Origin: Escherichia phage T5_ev219
Sequence record: NC_134263.1
Length of the DNA stretch: 64,000 bases
Reading direction: 5' to 3' (one strand)
This document shows positions 12,381 through 60,835 of this stretch, one piece after another. The stretch's first letter is position 1, and each line of letters begins with the position of its first letter. A program made the position numbers and the translations under genes. The notes under the pieces are model-generated. The model ran no database searches. It was not told the DNA's origin and was given only the letters and a program-made list of their open reading frames with translations.

Positions 12381-12809
12381 ATGTTCAATAATATACTCTC
12401 TAAAGAGGCTAACCCGATATTGGTTAATTTTTGGCGTACTCTTCCAGCCAACCTGTACAATGAGGCTATTAATGATCTGAAAATATGGTGTGAGAATAAT
12501 GAAATCTCCTTTGCTTTTAAGGGTGAGATTGAAGAAGCTCCCTGTATTGGTTTAATTGTGCAGGTAGAGGATGGTCTGGAAGAGATTGTCGGCTGGAAAG
12601 AGTTGGATGAAATGGGGTTGGTTTTTGCATTAAACTATAAGCTATTTATGCCCAATAAACACCGTATTGTTGTTAATTATAAAACCAGTGAATCTCCTGG
12701 TTTTCAAGTTAATGAACACTACGGTTGGTCTTACTCACCGGAAGAAGTAAATGATGGTATCCAAAAACTTCGTCGTTTTGGTTATCAAATTCCCGGTTTA
12801 ACTGCCTAA
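12381..12809 (+). CDS. hypothetical protein, paralog A of tandem pair
   Basis: Shares W.EL..GL..ALN..LF.P ... R.G..IPGL pattern with 12819-13211. Confidence 0.55.
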   Translation: MFNNILSKEANPILVNFWRTLPANLYNEAINDLKIWCENNEISFAFKGEIEEAPCIGLIVQVEDGLEEIVGWKELDEMGLVFALNYKLFMPNKHRIVVNYKTSESPGFQVNEHYGWSYSPEEVNDGIQKLRRFGYQIPGLTA

Positions 12810-12818
12810 GGGGGCACA

Positions 12819-13211
12819 ATGGAACAAGTATATTGGCGTCAGATTGATCCTAGTTTGGTGAAGCGTGCTGAGAAGCTGCTACAACGTTGGTTGGGGGTAA
12901 GACAAGCCTCCTTCACTTTTCCGGAGCAGCAAATAGACGATCCCTGTGTTGGTGTTTTTCTATCAGGCTACGCTGGGGAATGGGAATTGGATTGGAATGA
13001 ATTGTCTGCTATAGGTCTAATTGTTGCCCTAAATTTCTCTTTGTTCCATCCACGTGGTTTGGCCATATGTCGTGTGCCTGATGACGGTTGTTCGCCCTAT
13101 CTTTTACAGGTGGAAGATGATATTTGGGAGTACACTCCAGATATTCTCAAAGAAGCCAAAGAACAATTAAACCGTGTTGGGATCTATGTTCCGGGGCTAA
13201 ATGATAAATGA
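12819..13211 (+). CDS. hypothetical protein, paralog B of tandem pair
   Basis: Paralog of 12381-12809; good RBS AAGGGGG. Confidence 0.55.
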   Translation: MEQVYWRQIDPSLVKRAEKLLQRWLGVRQASFTFPEQQIDDPCVGVFLSGYAGEWELDWNELSAIGLIVALNFSLFHPRGLAICRVPDDGCSPYLLQVEDDIWEYTPDILKEAKEQLNRVGIYVPGLNDK

Positions 13212-13234
13212 TTTTTATTAGTTGACCTCTGATT

Positions 13235-13260
13235 ACCGAGTCATTTTGGCTCGGTTTTCT
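13235..13260 (+). terminator. rho-independent terminator
   Basis: Hairpin accgag...ctcggt followed by TTTTCT. Confidence 0.5.
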
Positions 13261-13302
13261 CTATGCTCAAAGACACTGATAGCACCATCCGGAAAATTTT
13301 AC

Positions 13303-13331
13303 TTGCAGGATGCCCAAAATCTTGATATAAT
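13303..13331 (+). promoter_or_regulatory. sigma70-type promoter (TTGCAG-17-TATAAT)
   Basis: Hexamers at 13303-13308 and 13326-13331; about 500 nt upstream of next ORF. Confidence 0.5.
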
Positions 13332-13828
13332 ATTTATATTGAATTGAGAGACATTAGTAAAAATTGATTTTGCTAATTTTTCTTGTTTACAATCCGCGAT
13401 ACGGAACAGTTAGGCTGCCCCATTAAGGGTTGTTTTAACTATTACTAGTGTTTATATTGCATTAGTTAATCTTCAATTAAGTGATCTGTGTACCCTGAAT
13501 TCGGAAAGGTAAATCCAAACCGTGCATATTTAGCTCGTTATATAGGCAGAGTTTTATATGGGGGTGCGAACGAAAAGAGCAGCGAATGGCGGCACGTACA
13601 GTAGTCACCTACCAATAGGATAGTGAGGACAAATAGAATCGGCTTAGCGGCCAATGACCTAGGTTCTATTCTGTATATGAGCGAAGAGAGCACAGCACTG
13701 AGATATGATAACTTATTCATATTGTTTGATGATAATTGATGTTTACGTAAATAGTAGTAATAGTTGTTCTATTCTTTCTGAATAGTCCTAAAGAAAAGAT
13801 TTCGATTAACCAACACAGGAGTATTGTT

Positions 13829-16618
13829 GTGTTTTCTATCCTCCAAGGTCACGCCGGATTTTCTCGTGATTTAGCAACAGGTATTTGGCGAGAAATCAAA
13901 GCGGAAGATTATACCTTTGCCAAGCGATTCTCGAAAGAGCATCCAGAAGGTAAACCAGCTTCTATGCCCTTCAAATTTGATGTAATAGAAGAGCACGACC
14001 CACAAAGCCTTGCCGAAATGTTACCCCTTATGAGACGTTTAACGTCTGACCCTCATATCGTTGCGGTACGAGGTCGATGTCTTGCACCTAAAAATAATGT
14101 GCGACGTAAGAAAGGTAACTTTAATGTATCTAATCCTAGTAATATTATTGCTATGGACGTGGATGGTATCCTAGATACCGGTGGGTATGACAAATTTAAT
14201 CTTGTTGGTATGGCCCGCCACATTATTAAGATGTTGAATAGTATTAGTGAGGACATGTTCCCTCTTGATGCAGGCTTTATAGCTCATGCATCGTCTTCGG
14301 CTGGGCTTAAACCAGGTATCCGAATGCACTTAATGCTAGAATCTAACGTCAAGGTAACTCAGGGTCAGCTAAAGTTCTTATTTACATCTATCAACGATAG
14401 TAGTAAGCAAAAATTTGGTTTTGATATTGCCGACCTAGCTTATTATTCATCTGTCCAGCTCCACTATTTTGCCGACCCCTTATTTAGCGATGGTATTGTT
14501 GATCCGTTTAAAGCGGAGAGTAAGCCACGTCTGGTGTATGTTAAAGGTTCGAAAGTAAATTTGCCCAATAATCTAGTTGACTATGAAACAACTAGAGGGG
14601 AGTTTAAGGAAGAGTTTTATTCTTTACTTGATCAAATTAAAGGCAAAAAGATTGCTTCTGATAAAGTAGAAGAAACCATCAGCGAGTTAGAAGAGGCTGA
14701 TGATGGAGTGTATTTGCGTATTATCCCCAAACTATACCATAGAGCATTAGAGGATGGTGTTGATTTTGCATGGCTAGAACGTGAGATTAAACCAGCTTTA
14801 TCCGAATATATTGCAACTAAAGATAACAGTCGTAATATTCAAGATTACTTTAATAACGGTCGTAAGCAGGCTCTCAAAGCGTTTGTTAATAATTCTAAAC
14901 GTGAGATTCCATTAAATCTGAAAGGTGTTCCACTTAAGAAATTAGAAGTGGATTCTCCACCAGAAGTTCCATACCTGAAGATTAACATTGTGCCCCCAAA
15001 AGGCCATATAACATTTGTTAAGGCAAGTCTTGGTACGGGTAAAACTACGGCAGTAACTAAATGGCTGGACGCAGGTGTTCTTCCGGGCAACTTTTTAGCA
15101 GTTACAAATACTAGAGCACTGGTATCTTCAAATGCCAAGAAATTTAGTGCAGGACAATACGATAAGTCTGTAGATATGCTCAACTTTAAACGTGGGGCTA
15201 TTGATCGTATGTCCACAACTATTCACTCTTTGCATAAGTTCAAAAGTTTTATTGGTCAAATAGACACCATTTTTATTGACGAATGTGACGCTGTAATGAA
15301 TGACCTATTATTCGCCCCTGTTGTTAAACAACGTCGCGAGTGTATTCAAGTTCTACGTGACATCCTCATGACAGCTAAAACTGTAATCTTATCCGATGGT
15401 GATATTAGTGCTGAGACTATTGAAGCATATGGTTCTCTAATTGATTTTGATAAACCGGTTGCATTTTATAATCATCATCGTAAGATGCTGTCAAAAGCTC
15501 ATGCTTATGAGTTCCCTGATGAGTCCAGTATTTGGGTTGCACTTCAAACATCTCTAGAGATGGGTGAAAAATCTATTCTAGTATCTGATTGTGGCCCTGA
15601 TGAGCTGAATGAGAAGGGTATGGCACTACGTCGTAATACTGGTGCATTAGTTAAGGAAATCCATTCAAACTCCACATCTGATGTGGATATTAGACGTATT
15701 CTGGATTACACAACTAATGAGCTAATTGATCAACAAATTGATTGCTTATTATGTAGTCCATCCGTAACGAGTGGAGTTGACTTCAACTACTTCGATAACG
15801 TATTTGTTATTACGAGAACTAGTAATCAAGCGCCAAACATGCGTTTTCAAGCAATCAGGCGCGACCGTGGTGCTCAGAATATCTATTATTTTATTGATAA
15901 ATCCACTAGTGGGTTCTCCGCAGGTTCTGAACAATATAATATTGATGAAGGTTGGCTGGAGTTAGCACAGCAATTATACGCACGTCGCAGGGAGCTGGAA
16001 TCTAGGAACTATACTAGTACTTTACGTTATTACTTGCTTGATCAAGGTGCAACTATTGATATTTTCAGCGAAAGCTGGGGAACTATTGAAGGTGCTGGTA
16101 AAGAGTACACAGAAGAGCGAATCAAAGCTATTCTACATTCAACTCCTGATTATTGTGCCCCACGTCATGCGGATGCGTATGAAGCTAAGCTACTTCTTGT
16201 TCGCTATTATCATCTTGAGTCTATTAAAGATGTAACAGTTGAGCATGTTGAACAATATATCAAAGATAAGCCAAATGATCGAGCTGCATTCTTCCATAAG
16301 ATGCACGAGATGTTCTGGGAGGATATTAAGAAGTGTTCAAATGTGACCATTAAACCATTCATAGAGGCTCTGAAAGGTAAGAAAAAGGACTTCTTCCTTA
16401 AAACAGGCCAGAGTGCGAACCCAAAATATGCAAGAATGTACCTCGGTATGATGGGTATTGGTAAGGATATGAACACTGAAAATATCGTAGACTGGTATAG
16501 AACCTATTGTAAAATCGAGTGTATGCCAATTCCTTATAAGTTTATGACTGATGAGGAGAAACATATGCATGATGAAGCAATGTCAGAACTAGGTGCTAGA
16601 AATGACAGTGAAGAATAA
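13829..16618 (+). CDS. replication-initiator-type helicase (origin-binding-protein-like SF2 ATPase with primase-like N-terminal domain)
   Basis: GTG start with AGGAG RBS; Walker A GTGKT, Walker B IFIDECD; N-terminal IAMDVDG acidic motif; 929 aa. Confidence 0.65.
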   Translation: MFSILQGHAGFSRDLATGIWREIKAEDYTFAKRFSKEHPEGKPASMPFKFDVIEEHDPQSLAEMLPLMRRLTSDPHIVAVRGRCLAPKNNVRRKKGNFNVSNPSNIIAMDVDGILDTGGYDKFNLVGMARHIIKMLNSISEDMFPLDAGFIAHASSSAGLKPGIRMHLMLESNVKVTQGQLKFLFTSINDSSKQKFGFDIADLAYYSSVQLHYFADPLFSDGIVDPFKAESKPRLVYVKGSKVNLPNNLVDYETTRGEFKEEFYSLLDQIKGKKIASDKVEETISELEEADDGVYLRIIPKLYHRALEDGVDFAWLEREIKPALSEYIATKDNSRNIQDYFNNGRKQALKAFVNNSKREIPLNLKGVPLKKLEVDSPPEVPYLKINIVPPKGHITFVKASLGTGKTTAVTKWLDAGVLPGNFLAVTNTRALVSSNAKKFSAGQYDKSVDMLNFKRGAIDRMSTTIHSLHKFKSFIGQIDTIFIDECDAVMNDLLFAPVVKQRRECIQVLRDILMTAKTVILSDGDISAETIEAYGSLIDFDKPVAFYNHHRKMLSKAHAYEFPDESSIWVALQTSLEMGEKSILVSDCGPDELNEKGMALRRNTGALVKEIHSNSTSDVDIRRILDYTTNELIDQQIDCLLCSPSVTSGVDFNYFDNVFVITRTSNQAPNMRFQAIRRDRGAQNIYYFIDKSTSGFSAGSEQYNIDEGWLELAQQLYARRRELESRNYTSTLRYYLLDQGATIDIFSESWGTIEGAGKEYTEERIKAILHSTPDYCAPRHADAYEAKLLLVRYYHLESIKDVTVEHVEQYIKDKPNDRAAFFHKMHEMFWEDIKKCSNVTIKPFIEALKGKKKDFFLKTGQSANPKYARMYLGMMGIGKDMNTENIVDWYRTYCKIECMPIPYKFMTDEEKHMHDEAMSELGARNDSEE

Positions 16619-18707: not shown

Positions 18708-18731
18708 TTAGCCCCTATATGGGGCTTTTTG
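18708..18731 (+). terminator. rho-independent terminator
   Basis: agcccc tatat ggggct hairpin followed by TTTTT. Confidence 0.7.
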
Positions 18732-18749: not shown

Positions 18750-19058
18750 ATGAGCGAACAGGTAAATCAAAACTATGAAGGACACGTTGATGATCAGTCC
18801 ATCATACTTTGGGAGAAGGAGGGGGAACAAGTAAGATTAACAGTATCTGAATTTCGTGGGAATCTATACATGGGTATTCGTTACTGGCTTCTTGATATTA
18901 ATGATGAATGGTTTCCAACGAAATCTGGCTTCTCTTTTCCTTACACCCTAGAAACAACATCACAGCTTTTCTATGCGTTTACACAGATTCTTAGCGAATC
19001 TGAGGTTTTACATGAAGTACAGAAACGAGCTGAAGAACTCAAAGCCAAGAATGCCTAG
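18750..19058 (+). CDS. PC4-like ssDNA-binding / transcriptional coactivator p15-like protein
   Basis: Resembles PC4 C-terminal domain pattern (VRLTVSEFRGNLYMGIRYW...KSGFSF). Confidence 0.45.
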   Translation: MSEQVNQNYEGHVDDQSIILWEKEGEQVRLTVSEFRGNLYMGIRYWLLDINDEWFPTKSGFSFPYTLETTSQLFYAFTQILSESEVLHEVQKRAEELKAKNA

Positions 19059-19072
19059 TTCTTGGCTTTTTC
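19044..19072 (+). terminator. rho-independent terminator
   Basis: gccaagaa tgcctag ttcttggc hairpin then TTTTT. Confidence 0.65.
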
Positions 19073-30916: not shown

Positions 30917-31581
30917 CGAGTGGTAAGTGGGAAGTAATTACCAAACCATATCGTTCCCCTGAATTTGATATTGTTCCGTATGATGAGATCCATAAATCCA
31001 AATGGAAACCGTCTGAATCAAAACTATGTTTCACGCATGTTCGTGGTGAAATCCCTCCACATGTAAAACCAGAAATTGATCTAACTAAGTATAACTGTTA
31101 TGATACTGTAATTGCTGGCGATTTACATTCTTATACTAATAGCCAGACTATCGGATCTACTAGACTTCTCTACCCAGGGTCTCCATTAACTACAACGTTC
31201 CATAGAGAACGCACAAAAGGTACAAATGGTTGCTTTATCGTTGATACCGACACATTAAAAGTAGAATGGATTGAACTAGGTGATTTACCACAACTGATTC
31301 GTAAAACAATCGGAGCCGGTGAAGAGATGGAACCTAGTGATTATGATCGTGTAGTCTATGAAGTTACTGGTGACGTTGTTCAATTAAAGTCTATCAAAGA
31401 CTCTGATTTATTAGATAAGAAGATTAACCATCGAGTTACTAAAGACGCTAAGTTAAATCTTGTTGATCTTGATATGTTAGGTGAACTTGAACTTTACTTC
31501 CGTGAAGTCGAGAAGCTATCTCAAGGCGACATTGATAGAATCTTGGCTAGAGCTGCGAAATATGTCAAAGATTACAATTAA
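30880..31581 (+). CDS. SbcD/Mre11-like nuclease, C-terminal part (frame-disrupted)
   Basis: Continues nuclease motifs (VIAGDLH, PGSPL); frame open only from 30871. Confidence 0.6.
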   Translation: MSISLCRSYNKVTSGKWEVITKPYRSPEFDIVPYDEIHKSKWKPSESKLCFTHVRGEIPPHVKPEIDLTKYNCYDTVIAGDLHSYTNSQTIGSTRLLYPGSPLTTTFHRERTKGTNGCFIVDTDTLKVEWIELGDLPQLIRKTIGAGEEMEPSDYDRVVYEVTGDVVQLKSIKDSDLLDKKINHRVTKDAKLNLVDLDMLGELELYFREVEKLSQGDIDRILARAAKYVKDYN

Positions 31582-58698: not shown

Positions 58699-59347
58699 AG
58701 CTACTTAGAAAGATTACTATATCCTCAGGAGCAACATTAAAAAATTCCGTGCTTCCTGTAAAATTAGAAAACCCACAGTTTTTATTATAATATTCTCTGT
58801 GAACTTCCTTTTCTAAATCTAAAGCAGTCTCTCTATCTGGCAGATGATACATGGTGAACAAGTATAGGTCAGAAAATCCAGATTCTCTTTTAACTTCATT
58901 CAACCGTTTCTCAGGGTATAAGCTTATGCCTACTTTAGTACCACTAGAGGAGGACATGATATAGAGGAATCCGCCATTCTCCCATTTAAGAGAACAATAA
59001 GGACATCTCTTACCTTGAGTCAATCCATCTAAGGTAATGAAACAGTCATGCCCATTATTGCAGCGTAGATGTAGTTTTGTTTTAGCATTAGTATAGCTGC
59101 TTAACAGAGTATACCCTATATTAGATATTCTGTTACTAACTTCATCTAACGATATTGTATTATTGGAGCAGTGTGGACAACCTCTCCTCATATGGAGTAT
59201 AGAATGTGGTGTTGCTTCCCAAACGTGTGCTCTCTGGCATTTAAATACTGTTTTTGTACGTTGGTTTACATATTCACCGACAATTTGGATTCCACGATCA
59301 GCTAATCTAATATTTATATCTTTTATTGTTAGCTTTTGTCGACCCAT
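58673..59347 (-). CDS. putative homing endonuclease (zinc-ribbon N-terminus, GIY-YIG-like core)
   Basis: CxxC...CPHCS and CPYCS ribbons; GFLYIM...KVGIS...RLNEVKR resembling GIY-YIG; TAGGAG RBS. Confidence 0.45.
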   Translation of the reverse strand: MGRQKLTIKDINIRLADRGIQIVGEYVNQRTKTVFKCQRAHVWEATPHSILHMRRGCPHCSNNTISLDEVSNRISNIGYTLLSSYTNAKTKLHLRCNNGHDCFITLDGLTQGKRCPYCSLKWENGGFLYIMSSSSGTKVGISLYPEKRLNEVKRESGFSDLYLFTMYHLPDRETALDLEKEVHREYYNKNCGFSNFTGSTEFFNVAPEDIVIFLSSFGLEEYGH

Positions 59348-59518
59348 AGAATCTCCTACACCCCATGTAGAGCATTAATTTTTCTTGTTTACGTTCTATT
59401 ATGGGAGAAGTTCTCCCGATCAATGAATATAGTATACATAATCGTATCGAATTTGTAAAGGGGATTTTAAAATACAGGAATGGGATACCAACTGAGTAGT
59501 ATCCCATCCTATACTTAC

Positions 59519-60835
59519 TTATTTACCACGGGAAATAGAGTAAATTCCATAGCGTAGTGCATCACAAAGGTGAGAGTTAGCATCATGACGTGGTTTTTCA
59601 CGCGATAATTTCTCTTCGCCTTCTTGGAAGTCCCACTTATAGTTCTGCAATGCATGGATTAATGAAGAGCATGAAGCATCTACAATAATCTTACCCTGCT
59701 GGAATAGCGCTTGCAAGCATGCTAGACCATCTAGGACAGATTTTTTAGCTGGAGCTGATGCAATTTCATGTTCATAAGCTAAGTCCTGGCGGAACTGGGC
59801 AGCCGCGGAGTCAACGAAGATACGATCTACGTTATAACGATCTATACAGTGCTGAATATACGCAGCATGCTGAGCTGTGGTTTTCTCCGCCTGCTGGTAC
59901 TCTTCTAATACGTAGTAAGTATCCGTATCGTAATGATACTTAATAGTAAGAACTGCTGTAGGATCACGATAACCAACGTCAATACCAAGCAACGTTTCGA
60001 ATGCTTCATCATCTTTAAAGAAGTGACGCATACCTTTGAGGTCTTTAACATGATCGATAGCGTTAAAGGTATCAAAGATCTGACCTTCGAATACAGAGAA
60101 ATCAGCCTCATATTCCTGACGGAAGTAGTTTTTACTAACTGTACGACGTGCTTCTTCGATATCATTCAGATCAGCACGTGGGTTATCACGATATGTACCA
60201 TGAATAGATACCCAGTTAGGTAACGTATCATCAAATCCATAAGCGTAAAACTCTTTAAACCAGTTACCACCACGAGGGGTGGAAATAAATAGAGCCTTAG
60301 AATTAGGTTTATCTAGAGTAGGACGTAACTGAACCCTAAAGGCATCACCACCTACATCGGAAATTGCAGCCTCATCAAAGATGATAAAATCATATGAACG
60401 TCCAACTGCGGAGTCAGCCTGAGCAGCAGAAGCTAGTTTAAACAGAGAACCATTAGCCAACTCTATTTCTTTATCTTTAGCGTTTTCACGTTCGGTTTGT
60501 AGGCCATACTTCTTAATAAGACCACGAATCTGTGACCATCCAATATTAGCCAGTGAATAGTTAGGTGCAACAACAAGCACTTTTACATTAGGTTCCAGCA
60601 ACTTTAGGAACCCAAGTGTATATGCTATAAAGGACTTGCCTACACGGCGTGATACACACGCCGTTACAAAACGATGTCTAGGGTCTTCTAGGGCATTGAT
60701 AATTGCTATTTGAGGGCCGTTAGGTGTAATACCTTCTTGTGCTAGTATTCCTGAAACAGGTAGACGAAAGAAACGTTTATCTATTCCGAAATCAATAACA
60801 TCTACTGTGTTAACGTAGGGTCTTGATACTTCCAT
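59519..60835 (-). CDS. terL: terminase large subunit
   Basis: 438 aa; Walker A-like VSRRVGKS, ATPase + RNase H-like nuclease fold. Confidence 0.9.
   Translation of the reverse strand: MEVSRPYVNTVDVIDFGIDKRFFRLPVSGILAQEGITPNGPQIAIINALEDPRHRFVTACVSRRVGKSFIAYTLGFLKLLEPNVKVLVVAPNYSLANIGWSQIRGLIKKYGLQTERENAKDKEIELANGSLFKLASAAQADSAVGRSYDFIIFDEAAISDVGGDAFRVQLRPTLDKPNSKALFISTPRGGNWFKEFYAYGFDDTLPNWVSIHGTYRDNPRADLNDIEEARRTVSKNYFRQEYEADFSVFEGQIFDTFNAIDHVKDLKGMRHFFKDDEAFETLLGIDVGYRDPTAVLTIKYHYDTDTYYVLEEYQQAEKTTAQHAAYIQHCIDRYNVDRIFVDSAAAQFRQDLAYEHEIASAPAKKSVLDGLACLQALFQQGKIIVDASCSSLIHALQNYKWDFQEGEEKLSREKPRHDANSHLCDALRYGIYSISRGK

Follow-up and report, generated by a model that had tools for sequence, protein, structure and literature searches.

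A conserved multi-helix RNA in the untranslated leader of the D2 helicase gene of T5-like phages

Introduction

T5 is a classical model phage in which the start of replication and the control of the D2 helicase call for explanation. The 64,000-nucleotide (nt) stretch of the Escherichia phage T5_ev219 genome (NC_134263.1) analysed here, hereafter the window, contains a single long gap free of open reading frames (ORFs), 617 nt from 13212 to 13828, which lies directly 5' of the D2 homologue and holds the early promoter T5P32 (P32). What does a T5-like phage keep in this gap? A first-pass annotation made from the sequence alone had offered three options, namely a replication origin, a long regulatory leader or a small non-coding RNA. 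We show here that ~400 nt of the leader (13346-13785) fold into a conserved multi-helix RNA. What stands of those options is a functional plus-strand RNA that starts out, at the least, as the 5' leader of the D2 mRNA, although a fold of ~400 nt can hardly be called small; the origin is weighed below. Placed at the entrance to the replication block, an RNA of this size might control how much helicase is made, be a stable RNA released by processing, or belong to an origin.

A structured RNA on the transcribed strand

The region had been described as structured, and its single-sequence fold does exceed chance: the plus-strand RNA from 13338 to 13840 reaches -130.5 kcal/mol (z = -2.9, one of 100 shuffles being as good), compared with z = -1.8 for the minus strand and z = -0.5 for a coding stretch. 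The pairing given as an example by the first-pass annotation, gtgc...gcac (13564-67 with 13592-95), is present in this fold but lies in the part that varies between phages. Much stronger evidence came from the comparative analysis that the same annotation had proposed as a check. Compensatory changes are visible at many sites of the leader on inspection of the alignment, and RNAalifold, run on the full leaders of 13 lineages at its conservative setting, retained 39 pairs, 28 of them with compensatory change. The consensus used for testing was ribosum-scored, derived from the full leaders of the same number of lineages, and comprises 107 pairs in 17 helices over ~440 nt. Its cells are paired in 85.6% of cases (72.5±0.7% in shuffled alignments), 62 of its 107 pairs have changed on both sides (38±3.6 when shuffled) and its covariation score is 0.416 (0.199 when shuffled); none of 500 shuffles reached any of these measures, and slid controls attained at most 48.5% paired cells and a score of 0.127. 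Counted helix by helix, compensated pairs amount, for example, to 8 of 8, 8 of 10 and 6 of 8. It counts against our interpretation that this consensus was derived from the very MAFFT alignment on which it was tested and that the sequences are related, so that the statistics overstate independence; nevertheless, the size of the covariation effect and the counts per helix outweigh these caveats and leave little doubt.

The strand can be read from the same data. RNAalifold gave -113.5 kcal/mol and 112 pairs for the plus strand, versus -91.1 kcal/mol and 91 pairs for the minus strand, and the plus-strand structure contains 233 G-U pairs versus 41 A-C pairs. It is therefore the transcribed strand that folds, and the parsimonious interpretation is that RNA is the folding molecule, with the promoter driving the plus strand. 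We consider it very probable that the leader is a functional structured RNA made from that strand.

Anatomy of the fold

From 5' to 3', the RNA is built of the following elements:

13346..13384, plus strand: 5'-terminal stem-loop, GAGAGA (13346-51) paired with UUUCUU (13379-84) around an inner hairpin (13353-62 with 13368-77), from the minimum free energy (MFE) fold
13389..13433, plus strand: conserved 5' element, a helix ACAAUCC/GGGUUGU around the 26-mer GAUACGGAACAGUUAGGCUGCCCCAU (13398-13423), with the apical hairpin CAGU[UAG]GCUG (13407-13417)
13437..13479, plus strand: 5' side of the long closing helix, namely 13437-54 and 13462-79 (inverted repeats I1 and I2), seen in the MFE fold
13482..13492, plus strand: junction strand GUG-AUC-UGUGU, paired with GCACAGCAC (13690-13698)
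13632..13670, plus strand: CUUAGCGG hairpin, outer stem 13632-40 with 13662-70, inner hairpin GGCU[UAGC]GGCC (13641-52)
13703..13722, plus strand: hairpin AUAUGA[UAACUUAU]UCAUAU (helix 15)
13733..13765, plus strand: 3' strands of the long closing helix (13748-65 with 13437-54; 13733-50 with 13462-79)
13769..13785, plus strand: small hairpin CUAUUC[UUUCU]GAAUAG (helix 16), between the domain and the ribosome-binding site

The most prominent element is the closing helix, an interrupted stem of ~36 base pairs (bp) that encloses a domain of ~330 nt. Its outer strands (13437-54 and 13748-65) are complementary at 16 of 18 positions, and 12 of the 22 consensus pairs assigned to it (helices 5-7) are compensatory, the covariation keeping the helix in all core lineages. 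Directly inside it, the junction helix (helix 8) shows compensatory change in 8 of its 10 pairs (e.g., UGUGU/ACACG, UGCGU/GCGCA, UACAC/GUGUA), with a conserved AUC bulge. Outside it, the 5' stem-loop (helix 1) has 14 pairs, six of them compensatory, and 79% of its cells are paired over the 13 lineages.

The two most conserved hairpins carry similar UAG loops, both closed by a U-G pair. The first belongs to the 5' element, whose 26-mer varies only at the second loop base (A or C) across T5-like phages and the Pectobacterium phages DU_PP_V and My1; the helices of the element vary in a compensatory manner in the metagenomic locus L104 (CGGU/GCCG), and Klebsiella phage Sugarland has GAGCAU/AUGCUU versus GAGUAU/AUACUU. 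The second is the CUUAGCGG hairpin, whose UAGC loop is always closed by U-G. In an unadjusted MAFFT alignment of 12 lineages, this hairpin is paired in 79.5% of cells (58.5±2.6% shuffled) with a covariation score of 0.531 (0.179 shuffled), a value reached by none of 500 shuffles and by no slid control (at most 0.256).

The remaining hairpins also show paired substitutions. That at 13703-22 reads GUAUGA/UCAUAC in Sw2-type phages, GUAUGG/CCAUAC in TrudiGerster, and AAGUGG/CCACUU versus AAGGGG/CCCCUU in GSP-type phages, and that at 13769-85 reads CUUUCC/GGAAAG in DU_PP_V and CUAUC/GAUAG in Sugarland. The latter has no U tail and is therefore not a terminator. We dropped a possible pseudoknot between a UUAGG loop and a CCUAA tail, since in TrudiGerster the loop reads UUCGG without a compensating change.

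Conservation and two forms of the leader

Poor conservation across T5-like genomes had been named in the first-pass annotation as a result that would speak against function; conservation turned out to be high. The leader (13309-13790) is 85-98% identical to that of Epseptimavirus relatives (Sw2-type, L032; TrudiGerster, L007), while in the same phages the upstream genes are 50-83% and D2 65-93% identical, its first 1200 nt only 84-86%. The leader is better conserved than the neighbouring protein genes. Pectobacterium phages retain both GAUACGGAACAGUU(A/C)GGCUGCCCCAU, which is the 26-mer at 13398-13423, and GGCUUAGCGGCC. In IMG/VR, each T5-like genome has a single copy of the 18-nt pattern ACRGAACAGTYNGGCTGC; two additional matches are chance occurrences in coding DNA.

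These data bear on the proposal that the gap is a spacer devoid of specific function, either a structure shielding an untranslated transcript from Rho and RNases or the remnant of a decayed gene. The transcript is indeed G-rich and C-poor (GC skew ~+0.19 over 13400-13800), which would disfavour Rho loading, and its central part can be replaced wholesale. Yet the region is more conserved than the adjoining genes, includes 26-nt and 8-nt motifs invariant across subfamilies, keeps 62 base pairs by compensatory changes and occupies a gap that persists over most of a phage family with compact genomes, all of which makes a mere spacer very improbable.

The replaceable part is well delimited:

13493..13629, plus strand: variable central cassette, T5-type in this phage; GSP044-type phages have in its place a cassette of similar length without homology to it

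In about half of the T5-like records, the match to the gap region is confined to its two ends, and we refer to these records as GSP044-type (GSP-type). Compared with the T5-type, they are 100% identical over 13309-13428 and identical again over 13748-13800, whereas the centre (~13490-13730), of similar length, is only 36-46% identical. The GSP-type leader is homologous nearly end to end to those of DU_PP_V (nhmmer E 2e-24), L104 (2e-20), Sugarland (2e-12) and My1 (5e-12), while the T5-type centre showed no similarity to any other leader or to E. coli genomes or plasmids. The T5-type cassette is probably the derived form, because the GSP-type leader has these homologues and the T5-type centre resembles nothing. 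The type of RNA tracks the D2 clade, with T5 and Epseptimavirus on one side and the GSP group on the other, which fits co-inheritance or co-evolution, although linkage would give the same pattern.

An additional source of variation is a facultative insert of 89 nt that contains a hairpin (AUUUACGG/CCGUAAAU) and has a direct repeat of 8 nt, TTTTTCTT, on either side. It is found in 51 of ~530 T5-like records, one copy per genome, in T5-type and GSP-type backgrounds alike; in Escherichia phage DT571/2 it lies at positions 1625-1713 of the extracted locus (L005), which corresponds to the window between 13376 and 13377. Together, the natural pair of non-homologous cassettes and this insert constitute ready-made variants of the RNA.

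A long untranslated leader between P32 and D2

The window belongs to a T5-like phage, the gap region being 99.9% identical to Escherichia phage EC100 and 99% to T5 (AY543070). Positions 58,916-59,616 of AY543070 correspond to 13200-13900 of the window, i.e., window position x is T5 position x + 45,716. The T5 records list, in order, T5.107, a rho-independent terminator, the 'putative early promoter T5P32', an unannotated stretch and T5.108, annotated as 'replication origin binding protein', which is D2; terminator and promoter are the sole T5 annotations within the gap. The corresponding features of the window are:

13235..13260, plus strand: intrinsic terminator closing the DUF7415 gene block, stem 13235-13255 (9 bp, 5 G-C pairs) followed by a T run
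13293..13338, plus strand: early sigma-70 promoter T5P32, with an A/T tract, -35 TTGCAG (13303-08) and extended -10 TGaTATAAT (13323-31)
13818..13831, plus strand: Shine-Dalgarno (SD) sequence GGAG (13818-21) and GTG start (13829-31) of the D2 gene (13829-16618), from the ORF list and the T5 annotation

The terminator at 13235-13260 and the promoter at 13303-13331 are thus both present where the first-pass annotation had placed them. The terminator is annotated in both T5 records and conserved in the leader alignment. P32 is nearly invariant among T5-like phages and can be recognised in phages of Pectobacterium, Klebsiella, Serratia, Proteus and Providencia; a generic promoter scan missed it because its -35 box fits the consensus at only 3 of 6 positions. 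From the promoter spacing and the likeness of P32 to the T5 PN25 promoter, we infer a transcription start at about A13338. The untranslated leader from this start to the D2 GTG would measure ~490 nt. No plus-strand terminator was found between 13338 and 18710, and D2 is therefore read from the P32 transcript; the next ones lie at 18710-18726 or 19041-19069, such that the P32 unit comprises D2 and about six small genes. A candidate second promoter inside the leader (TTGATT-18-TACAAT, 13364-13393) was rejected, its -35 box being displaced by the 89-nt insert in 51 phages and the site not being conserved. Elsewhere in the window, a second apparent gap (30917-31480) turned out to be coding.

That no credible ORF precedes the GTG at 13829 was borne out as well, the whole of 13212-13828 being ORF-free, and re-translation in search of a conserved small protein, whose discovery would have undermined a non-coding role, found none. 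'Hypothetical proteins' are annotated here in Salmonella phage vB_Sen_I1, PMBT31 and others, and one or more hidden small protein genes could be sought at 13488-13604 or 13623-13739 on the plus strand, or at 13538-13720 on the minus strand. We give this practically no credit. No ORF holds its frame, start or length across lineages: the 38-amino-acid (aa) plus-strand ORFs are absent or cut in Sw2-type phages and TrudiGerster, and the 60-aa minus-strand ORF, which does exist as first reported, is cut down to 38 and 25 aa among near relatives. Moreover, alignment gaps are of many lengths with no sign of frame preservation (gap lengths were not tallied), and the substitutions take the form of covariation at paired sites.

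The gene that follows was correctly recognised at the outset as a 929-aa helicase of the origin-binding type. It is the D2 homologue, matches Pfam Herpes_ori_bp, and starts at a GTG identical to that of T5.108/D2 in AY543070. D2 is a biochemically characterised bipolar helicase of superfamily 2, kin to herpesvirus UL9 (PMC3632103). Residues 1-385 (13829-14983) have no match to any Pfam family or Protein Data Bank sequence; in this N-terminal part, D110-x-D112, S155/S157/G159/R165/H167 and D202 are invariant in eight divergent homologues and are reminiscent, in sequence, of motifs I-III of archaeo-eukaryotic primases. Some records name the D2 gene 'DNA primase'.

On the other side of the gap, the upstream gene, a T5.107 homologue with DUF7415, ends at 13211. 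It is one of two tandem paralogues (12381-12809 and 12819-13211) with two DUF7415 domains each (E 6e-33 and 1e-30), homologues of which are mislabelled 'tail tube protein' in some records.

Distribution and specificity

In all sampled lineages of the Demerecviridae except L056/L106, the D2 homologue follows a long ORF-free gap that begins with a terminator, a strong sigma-70 promoter or both. Beyond the T5-like phages, the lengths of this gap are:

Pectobacterium phage DU_PP_V: 600 nt
Pectobacterium phage My1: 590 nt
Klebsiella phage Sugarland: 598 nt
Serratia phage Kamaji: 433 nt
Proteus phage (L050): 820 nt
Providencia phage (L054): about 715 nt
Vibrio phages: 712-863 nt
Aeromonas phage: 1590 nt

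Upstream genes change from lineage to lineage, and the gap keeps to D2 in the same orientation. The deep lineage L056/L106, whose D2 is 44% identical, seemingly has short leaders only, with two promoters close to D2 and apparently without the long RNA.

Two covariance models were specific to this position. R1, built on the CUUAGCGG hairpin, gave a single plus-strand match 5' of D2 in 20 loci, Proteus and Providencia phages among them; R2, built on the 5' element, gave one match per genome, on the plus strand and 5' of D2, in the core family only. Neither matched elsewhere in the window or in unrelated loci. R1, R2 and nhmmer did not detect the leaders of Serratia phage Kamaji or of the Vibrio and Aeromonas phages; these are long and structured as well, but the short motifs that they share (CAGUUAGGC, CUGUAAGU and GAUCU) are only suggestive of homology. 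The leader RNA is a hitherto unclassified family that accompanies the D2 homologue over much of the Demerecviridae.

The Vibrio and Aeromonas leaders (1205-1916 of L017, with L058-L060, and 219-1808 of L019, with L061, respectively) reach 0.7-1.6 kb, exceeding that of T5, and have a high content of structure, in which G-U pairs change to A-U or G-C among relatives. Those of Vibrio phages contain the repeated motifs GAUCUCUG.GGGAG and GCUAGUGAA.GUC, and that of the Aeromonas phage has two further hairpins plus a third string with (C/U)UUAGCGG, which suggests that they may be tandem or expanded versions of a related RNA. Klebsiella phage vB_Kpn_IME260 has a second long gap, of 558 nt, between its DNA helicase and SSB genes (2534-3091 of L011); it starts with a promoter 85% identical to P32, and sugarlandviruses carry two such copies per genome.

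No known RNA family accounts for the leader. The Rfam scan suggested in the first-pass annotation yielded no family: with Rfam 15 there was no match in the whole window at gathering thresholds, only snoRNA-type noise of at most 16 bits over 13150-13900 at E up to 10, and, in ten homologous or analogous leaders, one chance match lying outside the leader (28.7 bits versus a gathering score of 100). These searches also gave no homology to GOLLD, ROOL, OLE or raiA, and ARAGORN found no transfer RNA (tRNA) or transfer-messenger RNA. A likeness of ACAGAAC...GGCU to the P4 strands of RNase P was dropped, as no RNase P model matched. BLAST against E. coli genomes and plasmids returned no match to the leader, and a 14-mer scan of bacterial genomes gave chance matches only among those listed, with no R2 match in the 80 loci listed. 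Our literature searches found no description of this leader RNA.

A platform on the D2 message or an independent RNA?

Our preferred reading, to which we assign a probability of roughly 45%, is that the leader RNA is a cis-regulatory and processing platform of the D2 message. It would act in cis or co-transcriptionally on this message, serving protein binding as well as processing. A protein of the phage or the host, D2 being one candidate, would recognise the two U-G-closed UAG loops, and a double-strand-specific RNase (RNase III) would cut the long closing helix. Such a cut would give the D2 mRNA a new 5' end, and hence a different stability or translation, and would also free the folded domain. 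RNase III-type processing is known from T7 early mRNAs, from the lambda N leader and from ribosomal RNA (rRNA) precursors. We favour this platform because the RNA originates at the D2 promoter and continues directly into the D2 message, because strong purifying selection acts on its ends, junctions and two loops with a peripheral cassette being replaceable, and because the closing helix is far longer than closure needs. As expected of a cis-acting leader, the element lies on the sense strand between P32 and D2 and forms a structured domain with covariation; as in RNase III stems, its flanking sequences form at least ~20 bp of mostly continuous double-stranded RNA.

Several further observations weigh against this reading. 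The P32 start, the processing and the abundance of the RNA are inferred. A classical expression platform was not found, nor any terminator or antiterminator in the leader, and the SD region has no unusually stable partner (z from -1.1 to +1.2 against shuffles in 12 lineages), the best one lying elsewhere in each lineage; a helix between a pyrimidine tract and the SD proposed by RNAalifold was rejected, having two weakly covarying pairs and no support from a duplex test against shuffles. Proteus phages have, between the RNA and D2, a promoter that fits the consensus (TTGACA, 18-nt spacer, TATAAT; ~2436-2466 of L050), and therefore D2 need not come from the long leader there. Finally, the RNA is larger and more ornate than known translational operators need.

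Some of these points would suit a stable non-coding RNA gene, from whose transcript the domain is excised to act in trans as a replication scaffold or ribonucleoprotein part, as a defence decoy or as a self-assembling ornate RNA like ROOL and GOLLD, its place before D2 reflecting shared early timing only. The domain is self-contained within its own ~36-bp closing helix, its size and number of covarying helices recall large ornate RNAs, no coupling to the D2 ribosome-binding site was detectable, Proteus phages have their separate promoter directly before D2, and the two alternative cassettes look like arms-race diversification or a change of specificity. However, there is no terminator to set a 3' end, so that the ends would need processing; the gap always accompanies D2 in the same orientation even where the upstream genes differ, which indicates a link in cis; and no Rfam family is homologous. 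On balance, we regard a trans-acting RNA as rather unlikely.

A replication origin?

Alternatively, the region could be the central replication origin or part of it. The P32 transcript would then be a folded pre-primer that stays hybridised in the A/T-rich DNA preceding D2 and would prime the leading strand there, with D2 loading afterwards. Wherever the gap exists, it does lie directly 5' of the gene for the putative initiator helicase, and origins are often found next to initiator genes; transcription enters the gap from a strong early promoter, the fold, like that of RNA II, is conserved, the type of RNA co-segregates with the D2 clade, and the position, at 48.5-49% of the T5 genome, is suggestive. 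Bourguignon and colleagues are said to have placed, in 1976, the first T5 origin near the genome centre. PMC3632103 cites that study for 'multiple internal origins'.

The origin proposed at first nonetheless lacks backing at the DNA level. There are no iterons or significant direct repeats, only weak two-copy repeats of 10-25 nt; the GC skew shows no inflection and the GC content of 13700-13899 is an unexceptional 0.33; and no minus-strand promoter-like site that could serve an RNA I-like regulator was found in 12500-14500. An iteron-type origin of the lambda, P4 or phage-inducible chromosomal island (PICI) kind was accordingly rejected, neither repeat array nor skew change having been found. 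The octamer GTTCGCAC, which we take to be the core of the herpesvirus UL9 'box I' site, occurs on the minus strand at 13564-13571 and 16413-16420, on either side of the D2 gene. Its two occurrences in 64 kb compare with 0.65 expected, and at least two were seen in 16 of 100 shuffles; the box-I-like copy at 13564-71 does not reach significance and is missing from GSP-type leaders. An origin in this place is, in our view, distinctly unlikely.

Slightly less probable still is a role of the RNA as an active partner in replication initiation, be it an RNA II-like pre-primer or a cofactor whose UAG loops D2 would recognise, or else as a member of a new class of ornate RNAs, self-assembling or catalytic. 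If it were an initiation partner, the RNA would mark the primary T5 origin near the genome centre, and the cassettes would be specificity modules for the two D2 clades.

Comparison with known systems

Our preferred reading, a platform on the D2 message, finds its closest models in the leaders and spacers processed by RNase III (T7 R0.3-R1.3, the lambda N leader and rRNA precursor stems). Here too, a long imperfect stem is formed by sequences flanking a folded domain and, as at the T7 and lambda sites, it lies in an early phage transcript 5' of a regulated gene; by analogy, the lack of a terminator suggests that processing rather than termination would set the ends of the T5 RNA. The T5 domain, with its ~300 nt and conserved junctions and loops, is nevertheless far more elaborate than the T7 and lambda sites, and its cleavage is only predicted. 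In rRNA operons, unlike in the leader as we envisage it, the enclosed RNA is the product itself.

In size and ornateness the RNA resembles GOLLD, ROOL, OLE and raiA, which extend over several hundred nt with many covarying helices and conserved purine-rich loops (PMC12286853, PMC5737381). With 17 helices and 107 pairs over ~440 nt it lies well within the class of RNAs above 300 nt and, as GOLLD and ROOL often are, it is phage-borne. Unlike these RNAs, it is located in the 5' leader before a specific gene rather than near tRNAs, and it occurs in one phage family; having a promoter of its own but no terminator, it would need processing to be a gene with ends of its own.

Regulatory and priming transcripts of replication systems offer the remaining parallels. 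Like ColE1 RNA II, T4 oriF and oriG and the T7 primary origin, the T5 leader is a transcript of ~500 nt from a strong promoter beside replication functions, with a conserved fold; unlike ColE1, it has no promoter for an antisense RNA of the RNA I type (12500-14500), and we know of no need for an elaborate fold in the T4 and T7 origin transcripts. With the T4 gene 32 and gene 43 operators and with riboswitches it shares the position of a structured sense-strand element in the 5' untranslated region of a replication gene, its loops being possible binding sites. It differs from both in that no expression platform was found and that part of it can be replaced by a non-homologous cassette, and it is ten times the size of the T4 operators.

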